The position numbers and the translations under genes are program-made. DNA of 64,000 nt from Lentisphaeria bacterium (GTDB lineage Bacteria > Verrucomicrobiota > Lentisphaeria > Oligosphaerales > CAITYL01), in NCBI GenBank assembly GCA_041648735.1, contig JBAZOO010000010.1, positions 6,530 to 70,529 on the forward strand, given 5' to 3'. The notes under the pieces are model-generated. The model was given only the letters and a program-made list of their open reading frames with translations. It had not been told where the DNA came from and did no database searches. Each line of letters begins with the position of its first letter. Position 1 is the first letter of the stretch. This document shows positions 357 through 32,402 of this stretch, piece after piece.

Positions 357-2268
357 CCGCGCCCCCACCCACCCCTTCCTCATCCCCCGCCTCTGGCAGA
401 TCGCCGGCGCCTGCACCGCCGCGCTGCTCCTCCTCGTCGGGCGGATGTGGTCCTTGCAGATGCGCCGGCACGATCTGCTTGACCAGGACATCCGCCGCCA
501 GAGCATCCGCCGCATCCGCCTCGAACCGGTGCGCGGCCGGATCTTCAGCGCCGACGGCAAAGCGCTGGTCGACAACCGCCCCACCTACAACCTCGTCCTC
601 CATCTCGCGGAAATGCGCCAGCCCGGCCCACACCGGCGCACCAGCGATTTCATCCTCCAGCAGGTGGCCGCCGTCGCCGGGGCCATCCGCCGCCCATCAG
701 CCCTGACCCAGGACGAACTCCTCCGCCACGACCGCACCACCCCCGCCCTCCCCCTCACCATCTTCCAGGATCTCACCCCCGCCGAAATGGCCCGCGCCAC
801 CGACCTCCAGCCACCCATCCCCGGCCTGGAAATCCAGCCGCGCATCCTCCGCACCTACCGCCATTCCGGCCTCGCCGGACACCTCCTCGGCTTCACCGGC
901 CGCCGCCACCCCGAAGAATGGGACGCCAGCGCCGACACTTTGCGCCTCGCCTATTCCCTGCCCGAACTCACCGGCCGCGACGGCCTCGAACGCTTCTACG
1001 ACAACGACCTCGCCGGCCGCCCCGGCGAACGGCTCGTCCAAGTCGACATCCGCGGCTACATCCACGCCGATGCCGTCCCCCCCACCCCCCCCCAGGACGG
1101 CGCCGACCTCTGCCTCAGCCTCGATTCCCGCGCCCAACGCGCCGCCGAACTCGCCATCGCCGGCTACCGCGGCGCCCTGGTGCTGGTGGAGGTGCAGACC
1201 GGCGCGATCAAGGCCATGGTCTCCGCGCCCGGCATTGACCTCTCCACCCTCACCGCCGCCCGCTACCGCGAACTCGCCGCCGACACGGAAAACCAGCCGC
1301 TGCTGAACCGGGCGGTGGCCGGCCAATACATCCCCGGCTCCATCCTCAAACCGCTCACCGCCCTCGCCGCCCTCGAGGCGGACAAGATCACCGCCAGCTC
1401 CACCGTCACCTGCACCGGCGCCTATCCGTTGGGCAACCGCGCCATCCGCTGCTGGTACCACCCCGGCCATGGCCCCCTCAACCTCGCCGGCGCCCTCCAG
1501 CACTCCTGCAACAGCTTCTTCATCGATGCCGGCATCCGCCTGACCCCGGCCGAATTCCTCACCCTCCTCCGCGACGCCGGCCTCGGCGAGGCACCCGAAA
1601 TCGACCTGCCCGGCGCCGCCCGCGGCATCCTCCCCGATCCCGCCGCCGCCGCCCGCCTGCCCCGCACCGCCTGGATCTCCGAAGCCGCCCTGCTGGCCAT
1701 CGGCCAAGGCGCCATCGCCATCACTCCCTTGCAGGCCGCCCTCTACACCGCCGCCATCGCCAACGGCGGCACCGTCTTCCGCCCCTACCTCGTGGAACGG
1801 CTGCGCAACCCGGACGGCTCCAGCCGCCGGATCACCGCCCCCATCGCCCTGCGCCGCCTGCCCGTGCGCCAAAAGCACCTCGCCCTCGTCCGCCAAGGGA
1901 TGTGGCAGGCCGTCAACCTCCCCGACGGCACCGCCCGCCAGGCCCGCACCGCCGTCATCAGCATGGCCGGCAAGACCGGCACCGCCCAGTTCCAGACCCG
2001 CGCCGGCATGGCCAAGAACACCTGGTTCATCGGCTACGCCCCCGCCGACCAGCCCCGCTACGCCTTCGCCGTGGTCACCGAACACGGCCAGTCCGGCGGC
2101 CAGACCGCCCCGATCGTCCGCCGCACCTTCGAACTCTGGCTCACCCCTGGTGCCCTCGAGGCCGCCGAAGCCCAGGCCGCCGGCCGGCCGCCACCACCCC
2201 CGCCCGACCTGCCGCCGGAGGAAACCCTGCCCGCCGCCACCCCCGAAGATGAACCGGCCGCCGGCTGA
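346..2268 (+). CDS. mrdA: Penicillin-binding protein 2 (elongasome transpeptidase)
   Basis: This lies within ORF 220..2268. The ATG at 346 gives MSPDRAPTHPFLIPRLWQIAGACTAALLLLV, a short cytoplasmic tail plus a TM helix. The transpeptidase motifs are readable: GSILKP (SxxK), HSCNSF (SxN) and GKTGTA (KTG). The C-terminal tail is Pro/Ala-rich. Confidence 0.9.
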   Translation: MSPDRAPTHPFLIPRLWQIAGACTAALLLLVGRMWSLQMRRHDLLDQDIRRQSIRRIRLEPVRGRIFSADGKALVDNRPTYNLVLHLAEMRQPGPHRRTSDFILQQVAAVAGAIRRPSALTQDELLRHDRTTPALPLTIFQDLTPAEMARATDLQPPIPGLEIQPRILRTYRHSGLAGHLLGFTGRRHPEEWDASADTLRLAYSLPELTGRDGLERFYDNDLAGRPGERLVQVDIRGYIHADAVPPTPPQDGADLCLSLDSRAQRAAELAIAGYRGALVLVEVQTGAIKAMVSAPGIDLSTLTAARYRELAADTENQPLLNRAVAGQYIPGSILKPLTALAALEADKITASSTVTCTGAYPLGNRAIRCWYHPGHGPLNLAGALQHSCNSFFIDAGIRLTPAEFLTLLRDAGLGEAPEIDLPGAARGILPDPAAAARLPRTAWISEAALLAIGQGAIAITPLQAALYTAAIANGGTVFRPYLVERLRNPDGSSRRITAPIALRRLPVRQKHLALVRQGMWQAVNLPDGTARQARTAVISMAGKTGTAQFQTRAGMAKNTWFIGYAPADQPRYAFAVVTEHGQSGGQTAPIVRRTFELWLTPGALEAAEAQAAGRPPPPPPDLPPEETLPAATPEDEPAAG

Positions 2269-2276
2269 CCCGGCCC

Positions 2277-3875
2277 CTACCGGCCAGCCTGCGCCAGTTC
2301 GGCGGCGCGGCGGTAGCGGGCCCGGAAGAAGGCCGCCCAGGTGCGGGCGAGGCGGATGGCGTCACGGTTGCCCGCCAGCTCCCGGTTGGCCGCCGCCGCC
2401 CCCGCATAGCCGAAGGGCAGCCGCCGGAATTCGGCCATCGCCGCCGGCACCGCCGCCGGCCCGCCGGCGGCGGTGATGGCCGCCCAGGCGCGGACCAGCT
2501 CCTCGTGGGTGTCGATCACCATCGCCCGGACCAGCAGCCGCAACAGGTTGAAATGCGGCCCCGTCCACTCCCCGTGGTAGGTGAACTGCGCCGCCTGCGC
2601 GAAGGGATCCTCCGCCGAGTCGCTCATCTGCCGCCGCTCCGCCGCCGTGTAGAGGTCGCGCCGGATCGGGAGCCGGCGCAAGGCGTAGCGTTCCGGCCCG
2701 CCGGGCGCCCCGGCCCGCCGGTTCCACAGCCGCTGCCCCTCCGCGGTGAAGAGGAAGTCAATGAAGCGCCGGGCCAGCTCGCCATTGGGCGCCCCCCGCA
2801 GCAGCGCCACCGGATCGGCGGAATAGGAGCTGCCCCCGGCCGGCGTGAAATAGCGCAGCACCTCCTCGCCGGCGGCGCGGTTCTCCCATTCCGCCTGGAA
2901 CCGGCCATAGAAGTCAATGCACATCCCCGCCACCGCATCGCCGGCCGCCACGTCCAGCGGCACCTTGCCGGCGGAATGGGTGAAATAGCGGGCGTTGGCC
3001 CCGATCCGGCGCACCAGCAGCAGCGCCTCCTCCCACCCCGCCGCCAGCGCCGCCGGCGTCGCCGCCCCACCCTCGGCCGCCACCGCCCGGGCCATCTGCT
3101 CCTGGACGAGCATCTCGAAGGCCTTCGCCACCGACCCGCTTTTCGCCGGGTCGCCAATCCCCAGCCGCCCGGCCAGCGCCGGCGCGCCCAAGTCGGCCCA
3201 GCCCGTGGGCGGCGGCAGCCCCGGCGCCGCCTCGCGCCAGCGGCGCGGGTTGTAGCAGATGCCGAAGGCGGTCAGGCAGACGCCATAGTAGCGGTCCCCT
3301 TCGTCGTACCAGCTCTCGCCGCCGATCGCCCGCGGGATCAGCGGCGCCTCCCCCGCGAACAGCCCCGGCTGCCGTTCCCGGAGGCCGCAGGGCACCAGGA
3401 TCCCCATCTCCGCCAGCCGCTGGTGGTCGTACTGCCCGCCGCCAAAGAAAAGGTCAATCCCGCTGCTGACGCCGCTGCCCAGGAACGCCTGCCGCGCCGC
3501 CCACTGCGCCGGCGGCGCGCTCCCGGCCCGGAGCTTGCGGTCAAAGAGCGCCGCCGGCACCCCCTCGTCCCACGCCCCCCCCTGCCGCCGCCACTCCTGC
3601 CGGAACGCCCCGGTGTAGGCGGCGGTGAGGTAGCGGATGATGTCGGACGTGCCGCCGGGCGTGCGCCAATCCACCACCACCTCCTGCCCATAGGTGCGCC
3701 GGTGCCAGGCCGCAAAGGCGCGCCCGAACTCGTGGCGGATCGCCTCGTTGTGCGGCGTGATCACCACCACCCGCGCCACCCCGCCCGGCAGCCGCGCCAC
3801 CCGCTCGCGCACCAGGACCGGCGCCAGCAGCAGGACCCCCAACAACAGCAGAAGAAACGCAACTGAACGGCTCAT
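2277..3875 (-). CDS. Extracellular solute-binding protein (ABC-type, PBP2 fold, Fe3+/polyamine-like), orphan
   Basis: ORF 2277..3893. The ATG at 3875 (MSRSVAFLLLLLGVLLLAPV, signal/anchor) is preferred over the TTG at 3893. The sequence looks like a periplasmic binding protein (VVVITPHNEAIRHEF..., FFGGGQYDH...). No permease or ATPase gene is adjacent. Confidence 0.7.
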   Translation of the reverse strand: MSRSVAFLLLLLGVLLLAPVLVRERVARLPGGVARVVVITPHNEAIRHEFGRAFAAWHRRTYGQEVVVDWRTPGGTSDIIRYLTAAYTGAFRQEWRRQGGAWDEGVPAALFDRKLRAGSAPPAQWAARQAFLGSGVSSGIDLFFGGGQYDHQRLAEMGILVPCGLRERQPGLFAGEAPLIPRAIGGESWYDEGDRYYGVCLTAFGICYNPRRWREAAPGLPPPTGWADLGAPALAGRLGIGDPAKSGSVAKAFEMLVQEQMARAVAAEGGAATPAALAAGWEEALLLVRRIGANARYFTHSAGKVPLDVAAGDAVAGMCIDFYGRFQAEWENRAAGEEVLRYFTPAGGSSYSADPVALLRGAPNGELARRFIDFLFTAEGQRLWNRRAGAPGGPERYALRRLPIRRDLYTAAERRQMSDSAEDPFAQAAQFTYHGEWTGPHFNLLRLLVRAMVIDTHEELVRAWAAITAAGGPAAVPAAMAEFRRLPFGYAGAAAANRELAGNRDAIRLARTWAAFFRARYRRAAELAQAGR

Positions 3876-18848: not shown

Positions 18849-19232
18849 ATGATCGAACGCGAGATGTTGCCACACCTGCTGAAACTGGCGCGCCAGTTCA
18901 AGGCCGTCGTCGGCACAGGCCCCCGCCAAAGCGGTGGGCGGTTCATCATCACGGGCTCGCAGCATCTGGGGCTTCCCGAAAGTGTCAATCCGTCGCTGGC
19001 CGGTCGCGTCGCCCTCCTTGAACTGCTACCGTACTCCAAGCAGGAGATCGCACACGGCGGATACGCGCCGGACACGTTGGACTTGGCCCTCTTTACTGGC
19101 GCTTATCCACGGTATACGATCAGAAACCGGACACGGAGCAGTGGTACAACAGCTATATTGCCACCTACCTCGAGCGCGGTGTCCGCACCATCCTCAACGT
19201 CCGCAACCTCCTCCTTTTCCAACTCTTCCTGA
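18849..19232 (+). pseudogene. Second AAA ATPase (AAA_14/DUF4143) remnant with internal deletions and a frameshift
   Basis: The sequence MIEREMLPHLLKLARQFKAVVGTGPRQSG lacks the KT of the Walker A. It continues FIITGSQHLGL...LAGRVALLELLPYS. In another frame it reads YIATYLERGVRTILNVRNLLLFQLFLMLCAANAGQ. It overlaps the 3' end of the convergent gene 19194..20312. Confidence 0.7.
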
Positions 19233-20312
19233 TGTTGTGTGCGGCAAATGCCGGACAATGGAACCTGAACTTTCCTCCACGACAATCTCATCGGCTTTCA
19301 GCAACACCTTGGCCAGCACTTCCTTGCAATAGCCGCACGACTGGCATTCCCCGGTGCAACCGGTGGTCTTCTCAAACCAGTCGGCCGGAAACTTTGCATT
19401 GCTGATATAATGCTGCCCAAGGCTCTTGGAATGGTTGGGTTCCAGCAAATCCAATAGATTCCCCCTATATTTTCCGGCAATGTAGGCCTGGAGAATGGAA
19501 AGGGGCCGCGCACTCATTCGGGTCGCCAGCTTCATTGCCGGGAACAGCCCCTCGTAGTGATGGACATCCTCCGGGCGGATCCAGGTGTTTTGCAGCAAGG
19601 ACACCCAGTTTTCGGGCTTCCCGTAATAATTCCAGCAGACAAACGGGTTGAAATCGTCGAGGTTTTTCGTTTCCTGAATCTCCTTCTCGTGCGCCACCGC
19701 ATTGTCATGGAAAGTCTGGCCCGAGCAAAAGCGCAGGCAGCCGCTGTTCGCCAGGAGGTGGAGAGTCTTTCCCTGCCTATCGGTCCAGGACTTGATTTTT
19801 CGAATGGAGTCCAGATTGCGGTTGAAATCCCGCTGGAGATAATAGCCGTCAAAGCGGTCGCCCAGATATTGCATCCCCTTGACATCCCCGATGCGCATGT
19901 TGACTGACGCCCGGGTTTTGATGTCGGGGAACTGGGTCTTGACCACCTTGGCGATGAAGGGGGAGGCAGTGGTCACGCACTCCAGCCCGCCTGCCACCTC
20001 ACGGATGTGTTCAATGACGGAACGGACATAATTGCCCAAGTATTGGGAGACGGCCTTCCCCCCATGGCAATTGGCGTTGAACAGGAGATTCAGCTTGATG
20101 CCGGCTTGCCTCAGCATCCCCAAATCGTTTTCCAGGAACGCCTGGCCATCCCAATTGATTTTCCCCCCCTGATTGATAAGGGAGGCCCGGCAGGTCTCGG
20201 AATCCAGCCAAGGGAAATAGACTTCCTCGACATGCTCCGCCAGCCGGCAAAGAGAGTGGGAGAAAGGCTGGCCGGTCTCATCGAAAAATTGATAGCCGAC
20301 GCTGAATTTCAT
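19194..20312 (-). CDS. Cys-rich hypothetical protein, weakly peptidase-U32-like (TIM-barrel / Fe-S candidate)
   Basis: This is a clean 372-aa ORF in a lower-GC stretch, MKFSVGYQFF...EVYFPW...LNLLFNANC. It has a Cys pair GCLRFC and a C-terminal cluster CTGECQSCGYC. The last ~25 codons are antisense to the ATPase remnant, so the native 3' end may have been replaced. The U32 assignment is from memory of family features and I could not find the PROSITE signature. Confidence 0.6.
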   Translation of the reverse strand: MKFSVGYQFFDETGQPFSHSLCRLAEHVEEVYFPWLDSETCRASLINQGGKINWDGQAFLENDLGMLRQAGIKLNLLFNANCHGGKAVSQYLGNYVRSVIEHIREVAGGLECVTTASPFIAKVVKTQFPDIKTRASVNMRIGDVKGMQYLGDRFDGYYLQRDFNRNLDSIRKIKSWTDRQGKTLHLLANSGCLRFCSGQTFHDNAVAHEKEIQETKNLDDFNPFVCWNYYGKPENWVSLLQNTWIRPEDVHHYEGLFPAMKLATRMSARPLSILQAYIAGKYRGNLLDLLEPNHSKSLGQHYISNAKFPADWFEKTTGCTGECQSCGYCKEVLAKVLLKADEIVVEESSGSIVRHLPHTTSGRVGKGGGCGR

Positions 20313-20346
20313 GCGTTCCGCCTCCGGGCCGGTGGCCGCCGGCCGG

Positions 20347-21441
20347 TCATTCCTGTTCCCCAGTATAGTCGGTCAATTTTTCATCCCTTTGGGCGGTGGC
20401 CGCATCCTTTTTCTCGCCATAAAGGCCCGCCAAGAGCTTCGCGGGATCCAAACGCCAAGGCTTGCGGATCCGGAACTTCGTGTGGAACTTGTTTTCCAGC
20501 TTGCCCTGCTGCTCGAGATGGATCATGCACTCCCGCTGGCAGGTTGCCCCGCACATGCAGCTCGGATGACGGAAGTTCTTGGTGCCCACGACGCTGGGGC
20601 CGTGTTTTTCATACGCCACGTCGAACGAGGCCCAGCGGCTGTGGATTTTGCGTTGCTTCAGGTATCCCGCATCGTCGTTGTAGACGCTTTTCATCATCCA
20701 GCGGGTCAATTCCGAGTCGTCCCGACCGTCATAGAGGAAAGGATTGGTCTCCTCGCTGCCGCACTGGAAGCCGATCCAGCAGCGCTCCTCGTCCAGCTTG
20801 GCATATTCATAGGTTTTCCCCTCCAGCTCAAAACTGACCTTTTCATCAGGGGAAATCGCCTTGGCCGGGCATTTTTTTACGCAGATCTTGCAGTTGTCGC
20901 AAAGATAAGGCTTCATGATCGGATCGGGCTCCAACTCGGCATCGGTGAAGATGAACGCCAAGCGTTGCCGCGGCCCGAACTTGGGGGTGAGGAAAATGTT
21001 GCTCCAGCCGATTTCACCCATGCCGCAAATGACGCCCGCAATGCGGAAATGAAGGAAAATGCTGGGATTGGGGTAGCCCTCCCTCACCGGAACGCCTTCA
21101 TTGACGTTGTAGCGGATCGCGGTGTTGTTGTAAATGACCGCCTCGTAGCCATGATCCTCGATGTATGACCCAAGTTCCCGCATCACGACCGGCATATGGA
21201 CGTCGTTGATGTTGGCGTACCCGACCGATGAATACATCCCCCAGTGGGTTCCTTCCTCCATCGGCCGGTACAGCCCCCGATGCACCCTGAAGGCCAGGCC
21301 GATAACCGACTTGGCTTCCGGAAAGAGATAGCGGGGATCATGGTTCTTCGGGGCCCCTTCGAACCGATCCATCGAACCGATTCCACACAGGTCGGCACCG
21401 AGATTCAATGCCATTTCTTTTACCATTTGCGACGTTATCAT
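20347..21441 (-). CDS. Reductive-dehalogenase / epoxyqueuosine-reductase (QueG)-superfamily 4Fe-4S protein, cytoplasmic
   Basis: The ATG at 21441 is preceded by aaggtgg. The N-terminus is MITSQMVKEMALNLGADLCGIG, then AKSVIGLAF. The family-typical GMGEIGWSNIFLTPKFGPRQRLAFIFTDAELEPD is present. The ferredoxin motif is CDNCKICVKKCP and a second Cys cluster is CMCGATCQREC. There is no Tat or Sec signal. Confidence 0.75.
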   Translation of the reverse strand: MITSQMVKEMALNLGADLCGIGSMDRFEGAPKNHDPRYLFPEAKSVIGLAFRVHRGLYRPMEEGTHWGMYSSVGYANINDVHMPVVMRELGSYIEDHGYEAVIYNNTAIRYNVNEGVPVREGYPNPSIFLHFRIAGVICGMGEIGWSNIFLTPKFGPRQRLAFIFTDAELEPDPIMKPYLCDNCKICVKKCPAKAISPDEKVSFELEGKTYEYAKLDEERCWIGFQCGSEETNPFLYDGRDDSELTRWMMKSVYNDDAGYLKQRKIHSRWASFDVAYEKHGPSVVGTKNFRHPSCMCGATCQRECMIHLEQQGKLENKFHTKFRIRKPWRLDPAKLLAGLYGEKKDAATAQRDEKLTDYTGEQE

Positions 21442-21544
21442 TTTTCGCCACCTTTCGCTGCTGCTCACACCTGGTTGTCATTGCCGCGGCAACGGGCGCC
21501 CGTTGCCTGGCGGCGGCTTGTCCACGCCACGCGAACCGTCCGGA

Positions 21545-23536
21545 TCAGGGGCGGTTGAGGGTCTGCCCCGGCCAGTCGTCCGTCCGGAACGGGGATGCCG
21601 GCAACCCGTTCTTGTTGTAAAGGTTGCAGCCGGCCGGCCAGCGGTCCCAGGCATAGCGCACGGCGATTGGCTTTTCCACCTCATCGGCTGACACGACAAT
21701 GGTGTCGCCATCAATGACGGCCTTGCCCCAGACGAACTTCCGGTCCTCCCCGGCAATGGCAAACTGCTTCAGTTCCCCGCCCCGGGCCTCCAGTCCAGCC
21801 CCGACATGGTCAAAACGAAGGCGGATTTTCCCCTCTTCCAGCGTCATGGCTTTGTAGAGTGGCCCCGAACAGGGTTGCTCTTTGCCATAGGTTTTCGCCT
21901 CCGCCCAGAGGGCGAGACGCAGCCCGACAGCCTGCTTGTTTTTCGGATGGATGTTGTTGGCCTCGCCCAGGTCAATGGCCACCGCCATGCCAGTGTTGGG
22001 CAATCGCAGCGCCAGGAGCTGGGCTTCCCGCAGCTCGGCCCAGTCGTCTTCATTGATATGCGGCAGAAGTTCAGTTTCGGGCACGGGCTTCCCTGGCTGT
22101 TCGCGGTAGAAATTGGCGAGCTGGACATAGTAGAAGGGGAAGTCACCTTGCCCCCAAGCACCACGCCAGGACTGGATCAAGGCGGGGAGGAGCTTCCGAT
22201 ATTTGTAGGCGCGCCAGGCGTTGCTCTCCCCCTGATACCAGATCACGCCGCGGATCGCCAAGGGGATGAGCGGATGCACCATCCCATTGTAGAGGCCGGC
22301 GGGGAGGCTGGGATCGCCCGTGCTGTAGACCTCAAGGGACTTCATGGGCAGACTGGCCTTGTAGCGCCACTGGCCAGCCAAGGAAAGCTCCGCCTGGCCA
22401 TCCTTCCGGACAAGCTTGACCCCGCCATCGCCACCGAGGATCCCGCAGAATTTGCTCCGGTCGAAAACGCGCACGGCGACCACGTTCCGCCCCGCCTTCA
22501 CCAGATTCCCGGGGACCATGTAGGCCCGGGAGATCGCCGCAGGCGCCTTGACCCCTGCGCCGGTCCGCCCCACCTCCACCCCGTTGAACCAGGCAATGTC
22601 CTCATCATCAATCTTCCCCAACTGCAACGTCAGCTCTTGCCCCGCCCATTCCGCGGGCAGCTCCAGCGTCTTCCGGAACCAGATGGCGCCATCAATCCAG
22701 TTTCCGGTGGCGCCCTCGAACATGCCGGGAACCGGCACGGGCAGCCAATACCGGTCGTCAAAGGCTTCCTCGCTCCAAGCGGTTTCCTTCTCCTGGATCC
22801 CCGGATCGGCATAGGCCGCTTCCGCGCGCCCTTCCTCCTGGCACTTCCGGGTGAAATCAATCGCCTCCTGCCGGCATTTGACGGTCCGCGCGAAGTCGGG
22901 ATCCTTGGCCAATGCCGCGCCACTGGTCCAGGCTTCGGCGGGCGTGGCGCCCACGGCGGCGCTGACCAGTCCGACGGGCACGTCCAGCGTCGCATTCAGG
23001 CGACGTCCGAAATAATAGGCGACCGCGGAGAAATTCGCCGCCGATTGGGAAGTGCATTCCTCCCATCGCCCTTGCAGTCCGGTGGCCGGCTCAACGGCAA
23101 CCGTTGTCCGGATTTTGAACAAGCGGATGGCCGGATGGTTGGCCCGGGCGACCTCCTCGGTGGCATTGTCCGTCCGTTTCAACGCCAGTTCCATGTTGGA
23201 TTGTCCGGAGCAGACCCAGACTTCGCCGACCAGGACATTCTTCACCCGGACCGACTTCGCCGCCCCCCGGACCACCATTTCATACGGGCCGCCGGCCGGG
23301 AATGGCCCCACCTTGACCAGCCATTCGCCCTGTCCGTTGCATTGGCCATGGAAATTTCGTCCGCCGATTTCGACGCTAATTTCCTCGCCAGGCGAGGCCG
23401 TCCCCCATACCGGCACTTCCCGGTCGCGCTGCAGCACGCAATTGTCGCCGAACAACGGATGGGGAACCAGTTCATTGGCACGGATTGCCGATGTCCAAAA
23501 CAGCAACGGCAGAAGGATTGCGGCAACAAGCTTCAT
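21545..23536 (-). CDS. Sialate 9-O-acetylesterase-like carbohydrate esterase (SASA/DUF303 domain)
   Basis: The signal peptide is MKLVAAILLPLLFWTSAIRA (ATG 23536; an alternative ATG lies at 23551). The catalytic motif is VWVCSGQSNMELAL. The protein is about 660 aa and has a second esterase lobe. Confidence 0.8.
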   Translation of the reverse strand: MKLVAAILLPLLFWTSAIRANELVPHPLFGDNCVLQRDREVPVWGTASPGEEISVEIGGRNFHGQCNGQGEWLVKVGPFPAGGPYEMVVRGAAKSVRVKNVLVGEVWVCSGQSNMELALKRTDNATEEVARANHPAIRLFKIRTTVAVEPATGLQGRWEECTSQSAANFSAVAYYFGRRLNATLDVPVGLVSAAVGATPAEAWTSGAALAKDPDFARTVKCRQEAIDFTRKCQEEGRAEAAYADPGIQEKETAWSEEAFDDRYWLPVPVPGMFEGATGNWIDGAIWFRKTLELPAEWAGQELTLQLGKIDDEDIAWFNGVEVGRTGAGVKAPAAISRAYMVPGNLVKAGRNVVAVRVFDRSKFCGILGGDGGVKLVRKDGQAELSLAGQWRYKASLPMKSLEVYSTGDPSLPAGLYNGMVHPLIPLAIRGVIWYQGESNAWRAYKYRKLLPALIQSWRGAWGQGDFPFYYVQLANFYREQPGKPVPETELLPHINEDDWAELREAQLLALRLPNTGMAVAIDLGEANNIHPKNKQAVGLRLALWAEAKTYGKEQPCSGPLYKAMTLEEGKIRLRFDHVGAGLEARGGELKQFAIAGEDRKFVWGKAVIDGDTIVVSADEVEKPIAVRYAWDRWPAGCNLYNKNGLPASPFRTDDWPGQTLNRP

Positions 23537-23561: not shown

Positions 23562-26300
23562 TTATCTTTGATTGGCTGAATCCAATACCATTTGGACATT
23601 GTCGATCTCGATGTGGCTGTTCTCCGAATCCAGCCCTATTTTCACAACGCCTTTCGTATTCTCCCCGGCGATTTTCAGCCGGAGCGTGATGGTTTTCCAT
23701 TCGCCAGTCCCCATCAGCCGCTCGGAAGCGATGGTTTTCCAGGTTCCGGCCTGGTTTTGCTCCACGACAATCTCGCCACTCCCGCCTTGGGAGATTTTCA
23801 CGTCTGCCGACAAGATCCAGCCACCCGGGACATCCAGAGAGACAACCTGCCCCGTGGCCACTGATTTCAGCGCGCCGGCGGTGGCAAGCTTGAGCGCGTA
23901 GTTGCCAGTCTTGCCGGGGACAAAACTCATGGCGCCAGGGGAAGTCCCCCAAGGGCGCAAATCCCAAGAAACCGGACGCGCGAGGGATTCATCGGCCATG
24001 TAGTCGCCTTCGCGTTTCTCAAAGCCGCCATTGGCGATGATGTTGCCGTGCTCCCGGACAGCCTTGGCAATTCGCAGCTTTTCCGAACTCACAACATAGA
24101 GCATTCCCGTGACCTCAAGAGGCGCCGCCGCCTTTGGGACTCCCCGGAACAGGCTCTTGCCGTATAGATCGGTGACTCCCAGCTCAAGAGGCGCCTGGGT
24201 GGGGGCAAGAGTCAGGAGGACGCGCCCGTTTTCCACGGCAAAGACATTGAGGGACGAGCCGTCCGTGCGCCGGAATTCCCAGGAATGAAACCGACCGTCA
24301 GTCCCTTCGACAGCCCCGAGGTATTGGTCGCAGACCCGCAGTTGCCGGGCCAGTTCCGCGGTCACCGCGTAGAAGGGGGTGATTTTCAGTTCGCCATAGT
24401 TCCGGTCCAACTCGCCGCCGTGCAGGAAAAACTTCGCGTAGCCCTGGGAGAGGAACCAGAGCGCCTTATAGACCACCTGGTAATCATCGGTCGGTTGTTC
24501 ATACATGTATTCGCTCATCCACAGCGGGACGCCGGGCTTGGCGGCGCGAACCGCCCGGGTATTGTCCGCCAAGGTCCCCAGGTCGGTATAACCATGCACG
24601 TTGAAAATGTCAAAGTGCCGCGCGGCGCCCAACGCGAGCAAATCCTTGGCCATTTCGGCGTCGGTGATGCCAGGGCTCAGGCTGAAGCCCGAAGTCAGCA
24701 CCTGGCAACTCGGATCAATCCCTTTGATGACGGCAGCGGCACTTTTAAGCAGTTCCAAGTACTCCCGCGTGGAACCGCTGAAGGTGGCATGCATGGCCGG
24801 CGGATGGAAATCCACTTCGTTGTAGATTTCCCAATACTTGACTTGGCCGTGGTAGCGTTCGACCACCGCCCGGACGTAGGCCTTCCATTCGTCCAGGCTC
24901 TTTGGCTGATAGCGGTCCGGGTTGCGGGAATACCTTCCCAGTTTGCCCAGCCCCTTCAGGCGTTCCATCTCCGCCTCCGAATACGTGCTTGCCCACGCCG
25001 GCGGATAACCTAGCACACCAAGGAGTTGCAATCCTTCCCTTCTTGCCGCGGCCACCGACCGGTCCGCGGCCTCCCAGTGGAATTTCCCCTTTCCCGGTTC
25101 GACGACGCACCACAGCCAGCACCGTTCCCTGGCCCAGGCCCGGTGCCACTGGATGCCAAGCTGGGAAAAAGCATTGGGCTTGACACCGAACAGATGATGG
25201 TGGCCAAGATAGTCCGCCAGTTTCCCGGGCTTGAGGTTGCCGGCATCCCGCGGCTGGTTGACAAAGGCAATGTCGTAAGACGCACCTTCTTCCCCGGCGG
25301 CGGCGATGGTCACAACCGCTTCATGATAGCCGCTCTCTTCCATGGCCGGCAAAGCGATCGCGAAAGGCCGGTAATGCGCGCCGGGGGCGACGGTGACCGC
25401 CCACTTCCCCTTCGCCACCGCCGTGCCGGCGCGGTCGCGGACCGCGCACGTAACTTCAAAACGTACCGGTCCCCCGCTGTAATTCACGCCGCGCAAAGGC
25501 AGCTTGATCGCCTGGCCGGCCGGGGTCACAAAAGAAGAGGCCCGGCGCACGGGGAAAAGCCCCGCCCGGTAGCCATCCTTTTGCCAGGCCGTCACGGGGG
25601 CCTGCGCCATGCCATCGCCGGCGAGGAGCGTCGTCTGCCCGTCCGCGGCCAGGGGCAGGCGCCCCGCCAGTTCAGCCCCGGTCCGGGCGGCAGCGGAAAT
25701 CCGCAGGGCACGGACATGGTAGCCCCCCTGCACTCCGGAGTCGAGGGCGTAGCCCACCCGCAGCCGCTCCGGCAACTGCGCCAACCCGCCCCGAAAAGGT
25801 TTGGCGGCCAGTTTCCGCCCATCGAACCAAAGGCCGGCCTCGCCGTTCCCCCACGATACGGCAAGGCGGCGCACCGTCTCCTTGCCCGGCGCTTCCAACA
25901 AGGGCGGACAGGGAACCGACATGTAGGCTGCCGATTGGGGACCGCGGACAACCACTGACAGGTCGCGGCCATCAACCGGCGGGCAAAGCACCAGCGACAG
26001 GATGGAGACACCCACCCCGGGGCCGCCGTTGCCCGAAACGCTGATCAAATTCTGGTAATCACCGGTCAAATCCTCGCGCGGCACCCGAAAAACCACATCC
26101 ATCTCAACCGTGCCCTCGGCTTGGTTGAGGATGCCGGGCGCCCAGTAGCTCAATTCGCAGCCGGCATCGGAAGCCAGGTCGCCAGCCAGCGTGGAGGCCA
26201 CCGCCGTTGGCTCCCCCACCCAGACACAGCCAAACCCGGCGCCCAATGCCATGGCAGCCAGCATCGCGAAACCGCGGAATCCGTGAAAGAAGGGCATCAT
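23562..26300 (-). CDS. Large secreted multidomain glycoside hydrolase (LamG-like N-terminal domain, clan GH-A catalytic domain, CBM4_9-like C-terminal domain)
   Basis: The ATG at 26300 gives MMPFFHGFRGFAMLAAMALGAG (signal). The GH-A motifs are YWEIYNEVDF and PLWMSEYMY. The C-terminal IIANGGFEKREGDY is typical of CenC-type CBMs. Confidence 0.8.
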   Translation of the reverse strand: MMPFFHGFRGFAMLAAMALGAGFGCVWVGEPTAVASTLAGDLASDAGCELSYWAPGILNQAEGTVEMDVVFRVPREDLTGDYQNLISVSGNGGPGVGVSILSLVLCPPVDGRDLSVVVRGPQSAAYMSVPCPPLLEAPGKETVRRLAVSWGNGEAGLWFDGRKLAAKPFRGGLAQLPERLRVGYALDSGVQGGYHVRALRISAAARTGAELAGRLPLAADGQTTLLAGDGMAQAPVTAWQKDGYRAGLFPVRRASSFVTPAGQAIKLPLRGVNYSGGPVRFEVTCAVRDRAGTAVAKGKWAVTVAPGAHYRPFAIALPAMEESGYHEAVVTIAAAGEEGASYDIAFVNQPRDAGNLKPGKLADYLGHHHLFGVKPNAFSQLGIQWHRAWARERCWLWCVVEPGKGKFHWEAADRSVAAARREGLQLLGVLGYPPAWASTYSEAEMERLKGLGKLGRYSRNPDRYQPKSLDEWKAYVRAVVERYHGQVKYWEIYNEVDFHPPAMHATFSGSTREYLELLKSAAAVIKGIDPSCQVLTSGFSLSPGITDAEMAKDLLALGAARHFDIFNVHGYTDLGTLADNTRAVRAAKPGVPLWMSEYMYEQPTDDYQVVYKALWFLSQGYAKFFLHGGELDRNYGELKITPFYAVTAELARQLRVCDQYLGAVEGTDGRFHSWEFRRTDGSSLNVFAVENGRVLLTLAPTQAPLELGVTDLYGKSLFRGVPKAAAPLEVTGMLYVVSSEKLRIAKAVREHGNIIANGGFEKREGDYMADESLARPVSWDLRPWGTSPGAMSFVPGKTGNYALKLATAGALKSVATGQVVSLDVPGGWILSADVKISQGGSGEIVVEQNQAGTWKTIASERLMGTGEWKTITLRLKIAGENTKGVVKIGLDSENSHIEIDNVQMVLDSANQR

Positions 26301-26392: not shown

Positions 26393-27025
26393 TCACCACC
26401 ATTTCCAGCAGGGATTGGTGGGCGGGGGGGCAAGAACCCCTTTGATCGTTTCGACATGGCCGTCGGCCATCAAGTAGTTGGCGCCGCCCTGGTGCCGGTA
26501 TTCGAGCTGCCCCCAGGTGGAAGCCGTGGCCGGGCCGCACACTTCAATGTTCTGGTTGATCTCGCCCAGCAGCAGCGTCTTGTCGGGGCTGGGGGGCGCC
26601 GCCAGCCGATAGGCCCATGGATACCCCGCTTGGATCCAGCCGTTGTAGGCATAGGAGACGACCCGCGGTGCGGAAGGTTGGAACGACGGGCAGATCAGCA
26701 CGCCAGAAGCACGCAGCTTGGGCGACGTCCCCAGGATCCCGTCGGAAATCCCAATGTATGGCGCCAGCTTTTCATGCCAGGATGTGGTATCGCCTGGCAC
26801 CGAGAGATAGACCGAAGGGAACCGCTCCTCGTAATCGCCGGCATAGTTGATGAGCCCCAGGCTGATTTGCCGCTGGTTGTTCAGGCAGGCGACGCTCTTG
26901 GCCATCTCCTTCGCCCGCCCCAGGGCCGGCAGCAGCATGGCGGCGAGGATGGCAATGATGGCAATGACCACCAGCAGCTCGATCAGCGTGAACCGGGCCT
27001 CTTCTTGATGGGCAAGCTTGTGCAT
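26393..27025 (-). CDS. Prepilin-type N-terminal methylation domain protein (DUF1559-like pseudopilin)
   Basis: The N-terminus is [35 protein letters not shown]. The ATG at 27025 follows gaggtg (the ORF track starts at GTG 27031). The C-terminus is [13 protein letters not shown]. Position -1 of the cleavage site is R rather than the usual G. Confidence 0.8.
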
Positions 27026-30105: not shown

Positions 30106-32055
30106 TTATTTCCTGCTCCGTGTCACGGAAAGGATACAGGCATCGTTTCCGTTCAAAGTCACGGCGAGGCCCTCTCGCTCCATCTCCGCCTCGCCATGCA
30201 GCACCTGTTTGAGCTTCCAGCCGTGGCCGAGAATCAGGTCCTCTCGCACCGGATGGGGCGAGTGGTTGACGATCACCATGATCCGGTTTGAAGCATCCTG
30301 GCAGTGTTCCGTCAGGCCGATCAGCGGATTCGTTTTCCGCACGGCCCGGCGTTCCAGAAAAGCCTCGGCGATGTGCCGATATACCCGCCAGCACGGGGAG
30401 GCCGATTCGGAATGGAATGCGCCGGGCGTTGTTGCAAGAGTCATCTCCATGGGCACAGCCAGAAAGTAAACACGGCCCTTGCCATACGAGGCCACCGTGA
30501 AGGCGGGATTGCCGCCGGCCTCGCGCCCAAGCACGGTCGCCCGCGTGGCGCGGAAGTCAACCTTGAACGTCCCGCTGTTCGGTATGGAGGTCAATCCGGC
30601 GATTCCCTCAACCGTGATCTCCCCCGGATCACGCCCCCGCTGCCGGGTCTGAGGTTCGAGTCCGGTCAACGCTTCAAAGCCGTCGGGCAACCCGTCATCG
30701 AGCGACACATACAGCGTGGCTCCCGCCTCGACCCTGGCAAGCAGACCGAGAGTGCGGCGGCGGGAAATCATCAAGTGTCCCGCGAGGCAGGGAAGCAGGT
30801 AGAACGGCGCGTCTTTGAGCGGCTGCGAGGCATGCTGGAATTCCAAATCGAACCCGGCCTGCTTGGCGAGGATGAAAGCGCTGTATGCCACGCCCCAGTT
30901 GTCCTGTCCTTCCGTGAGAAGGCAGACGGCTTCCCGGGTCCTTGGCGGCAGGTGCGTGAAAGGCAGACCGTCGAGCATCCGCCGGAAGGCGCCGATCTCC
31001 TTCAAGACCGGCTTGGCCCGCCCGTCAATGCGAAGGAGGCCGAGTTCCCTCTCCACGGTGCACCAGTCATAGGGCGCGTGCTCCAGGTGGGTCTGATCCG
31101 AGGCGCACCACCAGAGCAGTCCGTGGCAATCATTGGCCCAGAGGGAAAACAGGGCGGCCCGGAGAAAGTCCGCCGCGATCTTCTCGCTCGAGATCATCGT
31201 GCCCAGCGTGCCAATCTCCTCGCAGAGGCAGGGCTTGCCGCCGAGGTCGGCATAGAAGCGGCATTCCGCGGTGCCGTGCAGAATGGTGCGCACCGTATTC
31301 AAGGGATCCTGGTCGCAGTGCGGGGTAAACACCGGATAAGGATGCACCGTGAGCAGATCGGTGAGTTCACCTTGGTCGAAGGGGGTCCAGTTGCCAGACG
31401 GAGACAGGCTGTGCAGGCCGGAGACCACGGGACGCGTGTCGTCGGCGGCGCGGATCGTCTGGGTGATCAGCGCGGTCCAGGCATAGGCCTGGTCCCGCGA
31501 GGCCTGCCCCATGCAGTTGCATTCGTTGCCCAAGTCCCAGGCCAGGACCGCGGGATGGTGCTTGAACGCGCTCACGAAATGACGCACGAAGCGAACCTGC
31601 CAGCGGAGCGCCGTGGGATCCGTCAGCACTTGGAGGCCGTCGAACGCCGGAGGAACAAAAAGGCGGCCGCTCATCCAGCCCGTGAGCAGCCCGACGATGC
31701 CGCGAAGCTCCTGTGCCGCCAGCAGGTCGAGACACTCGGCGAAACGTTCCATCATGGCACCGGACATGCCCGCCTGGCCGCAGGGATCGTCGGGCAGGGG
31801 CGCTTCACCGTGCCGGAACTCGACCGGTCCCTGTCCGGTCCGCAGCAACGTCAGCGGCTGGAAATCCGGCCACAGGGGAAACACGCGCAAAACCTGGACC
31901 CCGTCCCGCCGGAGCCGCTGGAGATCCTTCTTCACCACGTCCGGCCGCCAGTCCTGCCACATGCGCGTGCCGGCGTGTGAGGCCCAATAATTGCACCCCA
32001 CGACAAATCCTCCGGCCTGAAGCCAGTCCTGTCCATGAAGCGTCGTTTTTCTCAT
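30106..32055 (-). CDS. Glycoside hydrolase, clan GH-A (GH42/GH5-like beta-galactosidase/glycanase architecture)
   Basis: The ATG at 32055 gives MRKTTLHGQDWLQAGGFVVGCNYWAS. The motifs are VLRVFPLWPDFQP, WDLGNECN (acid/base) and LCEEIGT (nucleophile candidate). C-terminal beta domains follow. The N-terminal 51 codons of ORF 30106..32208 belong to an ISL3 remnant. Confidence 0.75.
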   Translation of the reverse strand: MRKTTLHGQDWLQAGGFVVGCNYWASHAGTRMWQDWRPDVVKKDLQRLRRDGVQVLRVFPLWPDFQPLTLLRTGQGPVEFRHGEAPLPDDPCGQAGMSGAMMERFAECLDLLAAQELRGIVGLLTGWMSGRLFVPPAFDGLQVLTDPTALRWQVRFVRHFVSAFKHHPAVLAWDLGNECNCMGQASRDQAYAWTALITQTIRAADDTRPVVSGLHSLSPSGNWTPFDQGELTDLLTVHPYPVFTPHCDQDPLNTVRTILHGTAECRFYADLGGKPCLCEEIGTLGTMISSEKIAADFLRAALFSLWANDCHGLLWWCASDQTHLEHAPYDWCTVERELGLLRIDGRAKPVLKEIGAFRRMLDGLPFTHLPPRTREAVCLLTEGQDNWGVAYSAFILAKQAGFDLEFQHASQPLKDAPFYLLPCLAGHLMISRRRTLGLLARVEAGATLYVSLDDGLPDGFEALTGLEPQTRQRGRDPGEITVEGIAGLTSIPNSGTFKVDFRATRATVLGREAGGNPAFTVASYGKGRVYFLAVPMEMTLATTPGAFHSESASPCWRVYRHIAEAFLERRAVRKTNPLIGLTEHCQDASNRIMVIVNHSPHPVREDLILGHGWKLKQVLHGEAEMEREGLAVTLNGNDACILSVTRSRK

Positions 32056-32059
32056 TTGT

Positions 32060-32402
32060 CTTTCTCTGACCCCACGGACGGGACAGTTGATGCGCGGGAC
32101 GTGCGCCGTCAGGCGAGTCTCGAACTGCATCGTGTCCAGATGCCGCCAACTGCGTTCTTCGGGATGGTCGTAAACTAAACCGGACAGTCCCGGCCGCACT
32201 CCGGACAAGGAAGTCCGACACCTTCGTCACGCACCAGCCGGATCTCCACCAGCCGGCCGGCAATGTCGAGACGCACTTCCGCAACCCGCCAGGGCTTGGA
32301 AAGCCCCAACAGTTGCCCATGATGTTCGGCCAAAGTCATCTTTTCCGTAGTCCGGAAATTGGTCGCCTGAAAACATTGCCCCCTAAAATTGGCGAAGAAC
32401 CC
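32060..32402 (-). mobile_element. ISL3-family IS remnant: inverted repeat (GGGTTCTTCGCCAATTTT) plus ~90 N-terminal transposase codons with one frameshift
   Basis: The transposase N-terminus is MTLAEHHGQLLGLSKPWRVAEVRLDIAGRLVEIRLVRDEGVGLPCPECGRDCPV. After a frameshift it reads YDHPEERSWRHLDTMQFETRLTAHVPRINCPVRGV. This matches the zf-ISL3 region (CP.CG ... R.WRHLD...F.T.L...VPR..C). The inverted-repeat-like end is at 32385..32402. The catalytic domain is absent. Confidence 0.75.

Follow-up and report, generated by a model that had tools for sequence, protein, structure and literature searches.

An RdhA/QueG-like and a U32-like gene form a conserved pair in a Lentisphaeria genome and other anaerobes, with a possible role in the catabolism of glycan-derived compounds

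The DNA analysed here, called the window throughout, is a stretch of 64,000 nt from a Lentisphaeria bacterium (NCBI GenBank assembly GCA_041648735.1, contig JBAZOO010000010.1, positions 6,530 to 70,529 of the forward strand). Within it, two adjacent genes on the minus strand, designated R and U, encode a relative of the reductive dehalogenases (RdhA) and epoxyqueuosine reductases (QueG) and a protein that resembles the peptidase U32 family, respectively. The R gene lies at 20347..21441, with its ATG at 21441 and its stop at 20347-20349, and encodes 364 amino acids (aa). The longest open reading frame (ORF) extends through a GTG start up to 21468, giving 373 aa. The ATG at 21441 is supported by 34 R homologues that start at the same MIT/MLT position, and inspection of the sequence places a ribosome-binding site, AAAGGTGG, 7 nt before it. 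The U gene follows at 19194..20312 (minus strand; ATG at 20312, stop at 19194-19196, 372 aa). The spacer between the two, at 20313..20346 on the same strand, is 34 nt long and holds a GGAGG ribosome-binding site 9 nt before the U ATG, with no terminator-like site predicted on its coding strand. The initial annotation, made from the sequence alone, had placed both ORFs on the minus strand, and both are there, each preceded by a ribosome-binding site.

The R protein carries a core block common to RdhA and QueG, GMGEIGWSNIFLTPKFGPRQR (20962..21024, minus strand), which holds an invariant arginine, R160 in the 364-aa numbering. A first ferredoxin motif, CDNCKICVKKCP, of the form CX2CX2CX3CP, is encoded at 20866..20901 (minus strand); its cysteines C190, C193, C196 and C200 (373-aa ORF numbering) are invariant in an alignment of 35 R homologues (A2), which, like the alignment of 32 U homologues used below (A1), covers an identity range of 50-86%. 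The second cluster motif, C-GAT-C-QRE-C (CX3CX3C; 20527..20553, minus strand), contributes C306, C310 and C314, and a distal cysteine, C230, goes with it; these four are likewise invariant. The eight invariant cysteines are enough for two predicted [4Fe-4S] clusters. Selenocysteine or pyrrolysine in R homologues was considered and rejected, the in-match "1-2 TGA" and "1 TAG" codons being the stop codons at the ends of the genes, over which the profile matches had run.

By curated definitions, R is neither an RdhA nor a QueG. It scores 52.4 bits against the RdhA profile TIGR02486, over residues 144-219 only and with a cut-off of 160.35 (a six-frame search of the genome gives the R locus 48.6 bits), and 30.9 bits against the QueG profile TIGR00276, over residues 148-210 and with a cut-off of 200. 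The Fer4 families of Pfam match it weakly, just below their cut-offs. When PDB sequences were searched with the single protein and then with the family profile, the only matches were PceA-type RdhA, NpRdhA and QueG, the best for the profile being a PceA-type RdhA at 62 bits. These matches span the N-terminal "GADLVGI" strand and the central block with the first iron-sulfur (Fe-S) motif. In hidden Markov model alignments to 8q4h, 4uqu and 4ras, the invariant arginine of the FGPRQR sequence of R aligns with R305 of PceA and with K488 of NpRdhA, the latter position being anchored by the K488Q variant entry 6zy0.

An AlphaFold2 model of R built from the 35 homologues (predicted local distance difference test, pLDDT, 84.8; predicted template-modelling score, pTM, 0.85) was compared with the PDB using Foldseek, and all 46 matches at E <= 0.001 were QueG or RdhA. 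The best was QueG (5t8y, E 1.5e-10), and 8q4h (9.2e-10), 6zy1 (1.5e-9) and PceA entries were also found; template-modelling (TM) scores of the R model to these matches are only ~0.42. The B12 chaperones CblD and CblC occupy the next ranks, just above E 0.001. The initial annotation had assigned R to the RdhA/QueG corrinoid and Fe-S superfamily, which both the sequence block and the predicted fold now back, and had set a cobalamin core against a QueG HEAT domain; the model matches QueG, RdhA, CblC and CblD, and Pfam gave no match to HEAT or to PF08331 (DUF1730) at E <= 0.01. Also as annotated, R has no export signal, neither a twin-arginine (TAT) sequence (its N-terminus, MITSQMVKEM, has no RR) nor any other. 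There is no membrane anchor gene (RdhB) beside it, its neighbours being an esterase gene and U, and no reductase is fused to it. It thus has neither the TAT signal and RdhB anchor of respiratory RdhA nor the fused NAD(P)H reductase of the catabolic type. Since signal peptide, adjoining anchor gene and fused reductase are all absent, R belongs to the class-III cobalamin superfamily as a divergent protein of the cytoplasm, with a presumed corrinoid-binding core. The host genome encodes CbiC, CobS and four cobalamin riboswitches, and a cobamide is therefore available.

R thus shares with RdhA enzymes such as PceA and NpRdhA the predicted fold of corrinoid core plus ferredoxin (Foldseek E ~1e-9), the "GADLVGI" strand, the G-x-G...TP-x-FGPR-x-R block with its active-site basic residue, and the two cysteine sets for [4Fe-4S] clusters. 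It differs from them in its shorter length, in the CX3CX3C form of its second motif, in the missing TAT signal, anchor and fused reductase, and in its setting, since its hosts ferment and degrade glycans and its gene stands next to sugar regulators and a U32-like partner. With QueG it has in common a cytoplasmic location, a length of ~370 aa and the class-III B12 superfamily, whereas QueG is a single housekeeping gene and R is multi-copy and patchy (26/151 and 26/81 genomes in the sets described below). QueG, acting on a ring that resembles a sugar, illustrates that reduction by this fold is not limited to halogen leaving groups. Also close, by their description, are the published "simplified cytosolic" RdhA-like proteins, which are ~395 aa long, have neither TAT signal nor RdhB, and are encoded next to IclR/MarR regulators and sugar-degradation genes (PMC12219181). 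Unlike at the present locus, a U32-like partner is not mentioned in that survey, in the text of which "U32" occurs zero times.

The U protein had no match in Pfam, NCBIfam or PDB sequences at default thresholds. With permissive thresholds, 26 of the 32 aligned U-family members match the U32 family PF01136 weakly (best E 1.1e-5), the window's own U reaching 13.1 bits (E 0.057) with a gathering cut-off of 22.4. Profile-profile comparison (hhalign) of U against 31 genuine U32 domains of this phylum gave 88% probability and E 3e-6 over 264 columns. An AlphaFold2 model from the 32 homologues (pLDDT 84.4, pTM 0.84; residues 343-372 below 50) is a TIM (triosephosphate isomerase) barrel whose top Foldseek match is the U32 peptidase Mk0906 (5d88; E 4.1e-9, TM 0.68 on the target), the remaining matches being generic barrels. 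The resemblance to peptidase U32 proteins that had been pointed out for U, and the U32-type TIM barrel proposed as a check on it, are hence both found in the model and in the profile comparison.

Within the barrel, U carries the motif GCLRFC (C192-X3-C196; 19725..19742, minus strand) and two further cysteines, C82 and C226, all invariant in A1 and forming the pattern C82 plus C192-X3-C196-X29-C226. C192 and C226 fall, by hhalign, within one residue of the first and fourth cysteines of the U32 motif, and the four residues are probably a [4Fe-4S] site at the U32 cluster position. The C-terminal motif CTGECQSCGYC (CX3CX2CX2C; 19326..19358, minus strand), with C319, C323, C326 and C329 invariant in A1, is probably a second metal or Fe-S site. 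In addition, ~40 other polar or aromatic residues are invariant in A1, for example in the motifs QNTWIRPED and FHDNxVAH, which fits a conserved pocket. All four motifs listed for R and U in the initial annotation were recovered, and they are not chance occurrences, because the eight cysteines of U and the eight cluster cysteines of R are invariant in homologues. A radical-SAM assignment of U, suggested by the CX3CX2C in its C-terminal motif, was rejected: there was no PF04055 match even at E <= 10 in the 32 members, and the motif has a fourth cysteine and sits after the barrel. The last ~28 aa of U (19194-19277) are seen only in this genome and are disordered in the model.

The characterised U32 oxidases (UbiU/UbiV, TrhP, RlhA) and Mk0906 resemble U in the TIM barrel and in a cysteine cluster at the same barrel position. 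The oxidase cluster motif is CX6CX15CX3C (PMC11574389), which is present in the host genome's own U32 gene (L095) and absent from U. There it is replaced by C82 plus CX3CX29C, and U adds the C-terminal CX3CX2CX2C. U also differs in its size of ~345 aa with no further U32-associated Pfam domain, and in being tied to an RdhA-like gene rather than to ubi or tRNA genes. As scores below the curated cut-offs and different cysteine signatures apply to both proteins, R and U make up new subfamilies rather than belonging to the known families.

Homologues of both proteins are numerous, with 3,839 U and 1,335 R clusters at 90% identity. At 50% identity, U has 1,888 representatives at E <= 1e-3 and 1,201 at E <= 1e-10. 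For 79 genome loci with a U gene, nearly all metagenome-assembled, sequence was fetched and genes were called with a caller trained on codon usage; 61 had enough upstream sequence to be evaluated. The loci belong to the Armatimonadota, Bacillota, Planctomycetota, Lentisphaerota, Kiritimatiellota, Verrucomicrobiota, Chloroflexota and others. R lies immediately upstream of U on the same strand in 42/61 loci and immediately downstream in 5/61, so that it adjoins U in 47/61; in another 6/61 it is found elsewhere in the locus. Eight of the 61 were scored as having no R, two of which prove to have an adjacent R by tblastn, and R is thus present in about 55/61. The spacing from R to U is -4 nt, a stop/start overlap, in eight loci; of the 42 loci with R directly upstream, 30 have a spacing of <=36 nt. 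Whether the two genes travel together had been left to neighbourhood analysis, and across phyla they do. R copies number one to seven per locus, with two to seven R genes in fourteen loci.

The same association is seen at the level of whole genomes. Of 151 genomes from the phylum of the window, 28 carry U, 26 carry R and 22 carry both. A set of 81 Armatimonadota genomes includes 7 with U and 26 with R, and 7/7 of the U-positive genomes have R. In R-positive genomes of both sets R is often present in 2-9 copies. The U distribution is nested within that of R, U almost never occurring without R. Taken together, these counts identify the R-U pair as a real conserved module in at least seven phyla.

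The host genome contains one U, its paired R, and two further loci with R genes. On contig C17 (71097-73043; L128:7047-9134), a divergent IclR gene precedes two R genes in tandem, one short (320 aa) and one long (368 aa), with no U; a third ORF (400 aa) after this tandem was discarded as a spurious Ala/Gly/Arg-rich antisense frame. Short-plus-long R tandems recur in many Armatimonadota genomes that have no U. The other locus (C17:2722-5142; L129) encodes an 806-aa protein with two R-like halves, each with a ferredoxin motif, and again no U. Its halves also show a faint match to the QueG domain DUF1730, and it appears to be an R-R fusion. The genome has, elsewhere, two true U32 genes and two full-length QueG-like genes (151.8 and 149.7 bits). 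Within the window's class (L136-L142), a different, conserved arrangement is common, in which a LacI gene and one U are followed by three distinct R paralogues (U-R-R-R). These operons lie near GH28, GH78, GH71/99, short-chain dehydrogenase/reductase (SDR) and enolase-superfamily genes. An R gene 80% identical to that of the window (L144:9228-9707) has an IclR gene before it and a DUF6016 cupin-like gene in the place of U, in surroundings like those of Planctomycetes, Verrucomicrobia and Chlamydiae (DUF1559, GH71 and Laminin_G_3 genes).

Besides R and U, no neighbour is conserved: 129 flanking proteins matched 137 Pfam families, led by the regulator families AraC (11), IclR (5), GntR (3) and MarR (3), with sugar ATP-binding cassette (ABC) transporter parts, GFO/IDH/MocA, sulfatase, GH2 and xylose-isomerase-like barrels next. 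Sugar genes or sugar-type regulators occur within about three genes of the pair in 15 of 17 individually annotated loci, the window included. These loci show lyases and hydrolases (PL8, ulvan lyase, GH4, GH9, GH28, GH31, GH71/99, GH78), two sulfatases, a GDSL esterase, YdjC, arabinose/fucose isomerase and LacI regulators, together with SDR and enolase-superfamily sugar-acid enzymes; in same-class relatives, GH28, GH78 and sugar-acid genes are found close to the LacI and U-R-R-R genes. The association with carbohydrate catabolism recurs but is generic, because the hosts are rich in carbohydrate-active enzymes and one close homologue pair sits among housekeeping genes.

In the window itself, three minus-strand genes precede R. 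They encode a DUF1559/HX9DG pseudopilin-like protein (26393-27025), a 912-aa GH/CBM_4_9 protein (23562-26300) with weak GH10/GH42/GH39-like TIM-barrel matches and a CBM_4_9 domain, and a SASA-type esterase (21545-23536) that also has a GH2-N sugar-binding domain; all three were assigned by Pfam/NCBIfam. Measured with the start codons of the initial annotation, the five same-strand genes are separated by 92, 25, 103 and 34 nt. That annotation had joined all five into a glycan operon and had raised sialic-acid-derivative catabolism as a role. The esterase, GH and pseudopilin string was not found beside R-U at the other loci, so the arrangement is not conserved, and nothing points to sialic acid. 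The only sigma-70-like site predicted among these genes precedes the DUF1559 gene; neither such a promoter nor a terminator was predicted in the 103 nt that separate the esterase gene from R. An Rfam scan of the window returned no riboswitch or other RNA family.

The same 103-nt gap, between the esterase gene and R, contains a perfect 20-bp palindrome, GGCAACGGGCGCCCGTTGCC (21488..21507), 46 nt ahead of the R start codon. No second copy occurs in the 3.4-Mb genome, even at 3 mismatches, and a regulon cannot be defined for it because of this; it may be an operator or, in RNA, a hairpin that separates R-U from the upstream genes. In four close relatives (L127, L145, L146, L125), a palindrome resembling a LacI-type operator lies 31-119 nt upstream of R (ATAGAAACGTTTCTAT, ATAGAAACGTTTATAT, GCTTAAACGTTTAAGT and ATAGAATCGTTTCTAT), with a LacI gene alongside in 3/4 loci. 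GGCAACGGGCGCCCGTTGCC does not match the LacI-type operator motif of these relatives. The palindrome in the window and the LacI-type operator motif upstream of R in relatives both suggest that R-U may be transcribed as a separate unit.

The initial annotation had also noted that the segment is lower in GC than nearby housekeeping genes, abuts IS and ATPase debris and may have been acquired horizontally. R and U together have a GC content of 55.8%, compared with 68.0% for the genome, which places them in the lowest 2.5% of genome windows of the same size; the upstream glycan genes are at about 63%. A maximum-likelihood tree was built from 86 U proteins. In it, the U of the window groups with those of two Bacillota genomes and one other assembly (clade support 98/88), and the U copies of the window's own class form two distant clades. 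Neither U nor R was found in genomes of the same order (0/4). Directly downstream, two AAA_14 ATPase fragments run convergent to U and overlap its last 39 nt. The U tail, being genome-specific, disordered and overlapping this AAA_14/DUF4143 remnant by 39 nt, suggests an insertion junction here. From the GC content and the U tree, horizontal acquisition of the R-U copy from a Bacillota-like source is plausible, the direction of transfer being inferred only, as the U tree is unrooted.

Our favoured interpretation, which we hold with moderate confidence, is that R and U are a coupled, self-contained, cytoplasmic, O2-free redox module for the inducible catabolism of a glycan-derived compound. R would be a substrate-specific corrinoid reductase of class III (RdhA/QueG type) with two [4Fe-4S] clusters, through which low-potential electrons would reach the corrinoid, and a leaving group would be reductively removed from a small molecule. 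The expansion of R into paralogues implies that these have different substrates. U, as a U32-fold barrel with one Fe-S site in the barrel and a Cys4 site at the C-terminus, would belong to the same pathway; we infer a coupling with R that may be physical or metabolic, and U would most likely act on the substrate or product of R in an O2-independent oxidation or hydroxylation or a related Fe-S-dependent step. Induction would be through sugar-type regulators, and the compound set free by glycan breakdown could be a sugar bearing a modification or a substituent carried on the glycan; the types of regulator would suit such substituents as well as plant phenolics. In the host genome, the pair would have been acquired horizontally and inserted at the end of a string of genes for secreted glycanases.

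Several observations weigh against this interpretation. U is without a nearby R in 6/61 loci, and R without U in 19/26 of the R-positive Armatimonadota genomes and at the two C17 loci of the host genome; R therefore does not need U. No R-U fusion was seen among the best 150 of the 1,888 U-family representatives, in which none of the long proteins (727, 532 and 531 aa) includes an R domain. The corrinoid in R is a presumed one, and the fold is related to that of flavin-binding nitroreductases. Hosts so rich in carbohydrate-active enzymes provide a high background of nearby sugar genes, and the close homologue pair beside argS lies among housekeeping genes.

U might instead be an accessory of R and not a second catalytic enzyme: it would pass electrons to R as a dedicated partner, or mature R or load its cofactor, for one or several R paralogues. 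Typically there is one U for one to seven R copies, as in the U-R-R-R operons, the distribution of U is nested in that of R, and the two Cys4 sites could relay electrons. However, a complete TIM barrel with ~40 invariant polar or aromatic residues is typical of a substrate pocket, many R genes are in genomes without any U, and the RdhA chaperones and electron donors known to us are of families unrelated to U, and we regard an accessory role as rather unlikely. We consider it improbable that R is a true catabolic reductive dehalogenase, acting on natural organohalides or xenobiotics in a carbohydrate context that is incidental. Although the best sequence matches of the family profile are PceA-type RdhA (62 bits), the active-site Arg/Lys position is kept and the published cytosolic RdhA-like genes also stand beside IclR/MarR regulators (PMC12219181), the 52 bits against TIGR02486 (cut-off 160) cover only ~80 residues and the TM-score is ~0.4. 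Moreover, the hosts are fermentative glycan degraders, the flanks are dominated by LacI/AraC/GntR regulators and GH, PL and sulfatase genes, and no halogen-related genes were seen.

The pair could also be an RNA or quinone modification module that landed here, as the initial annotation had alternatively suggested, consisting of a QueG-like reductase and a hydroxylase like TrhP, RlhA or UbiU. The closest characterised families of both proteins include RNA-modifying enzymes, and the homologue pair next to argS lies in a setting that would suit housekeeping. This possibility is quite unlikely in view of the patchy distribution (U in 28/151 and 7/81 genomes), the multiple copies of R, the sugar-type regulators and operators, and the U32 and QueG-like genes that the genome has separately; in addition, U has no CX6CX15CX3C, and R has no DUF1730 or HEAT match in Pfam. 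Finally, each gene is found without the other in some genomes, as would be expected of unrelated neighbours brought together by chance, but their adjacency in 47/61 loci of at least seven phyla, with stop/start overlaps, while other neighbours change, leaves this explanation barely credible.

To our knowledge, organohalide reduction and epoxyqueuosine reduction are the sole functions established for class-III B12 enzymes, and the U32 Fe-S enzymes known so far act in the anaerobic synthesis of ubiquinone or in the hydroxylation of RNA. The R-U module joins divergent members of both families and has roughly 1,200-3,800 homologues in at least seven phyla. A literature search found no paper that combined "peptidase U32" with RdhA or QueG terms, and a search for epoxyqueuosine reductase with sulfatase and polysaccharide returned only a general review; the R-U pairing and the arrays of R paralogues appear to be undescribed. 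A bolder reading, possible though doubtful in our view, is that R-U represents a third functional class of RdhA/QueG-type enzymes, in which a diversified reductase and a U32-type O2-independent oxidase carry out an unknown anaerobic reaction on glycan-derived molecules. For example, an ether, a sulfo group or a different leaving group might be taken off a sugar by reduction or by hydroxylation, and the system would then be widespread in uncultured anaerobic polysaccharide degraders. The carriers are mostly uncultured anaerobes that degrade complex glycans, and the module is under sugar-type regulators. Its substrate could reveal a new O2-free reaction in the turnover of carbohydrate or plant-derived carbon and would also widen the catalytic repertoire of both families. 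Some U homologues carry the Joint Genome Institute (JGI) label "collagenase-like PrtC family protease", and caution is advisable in annotating genes of this kind as "reductive dehalogenase", "epoxyqueuosine reductase" or "collagenase".

A few minor features remain. A DUF1015 gene lies 0.3-2.5 kb from R-U in two unrelated Clostridia-type contexts (L002/L003 and L125/L126). In another locus (L127:15618-16706), a gene of the URO-D family is located in a sugar ABC transporter operon beside R-U; the URO-D family includes corrinoid-dependent methyltransferases. Elsewhere in the window, the ORF at 30106-32208 encodes a GH2-like TIM barrel and, when read from a TTG start, its N-terminus matches the zinc ribbon of ISL3-type transposases (PF14690).

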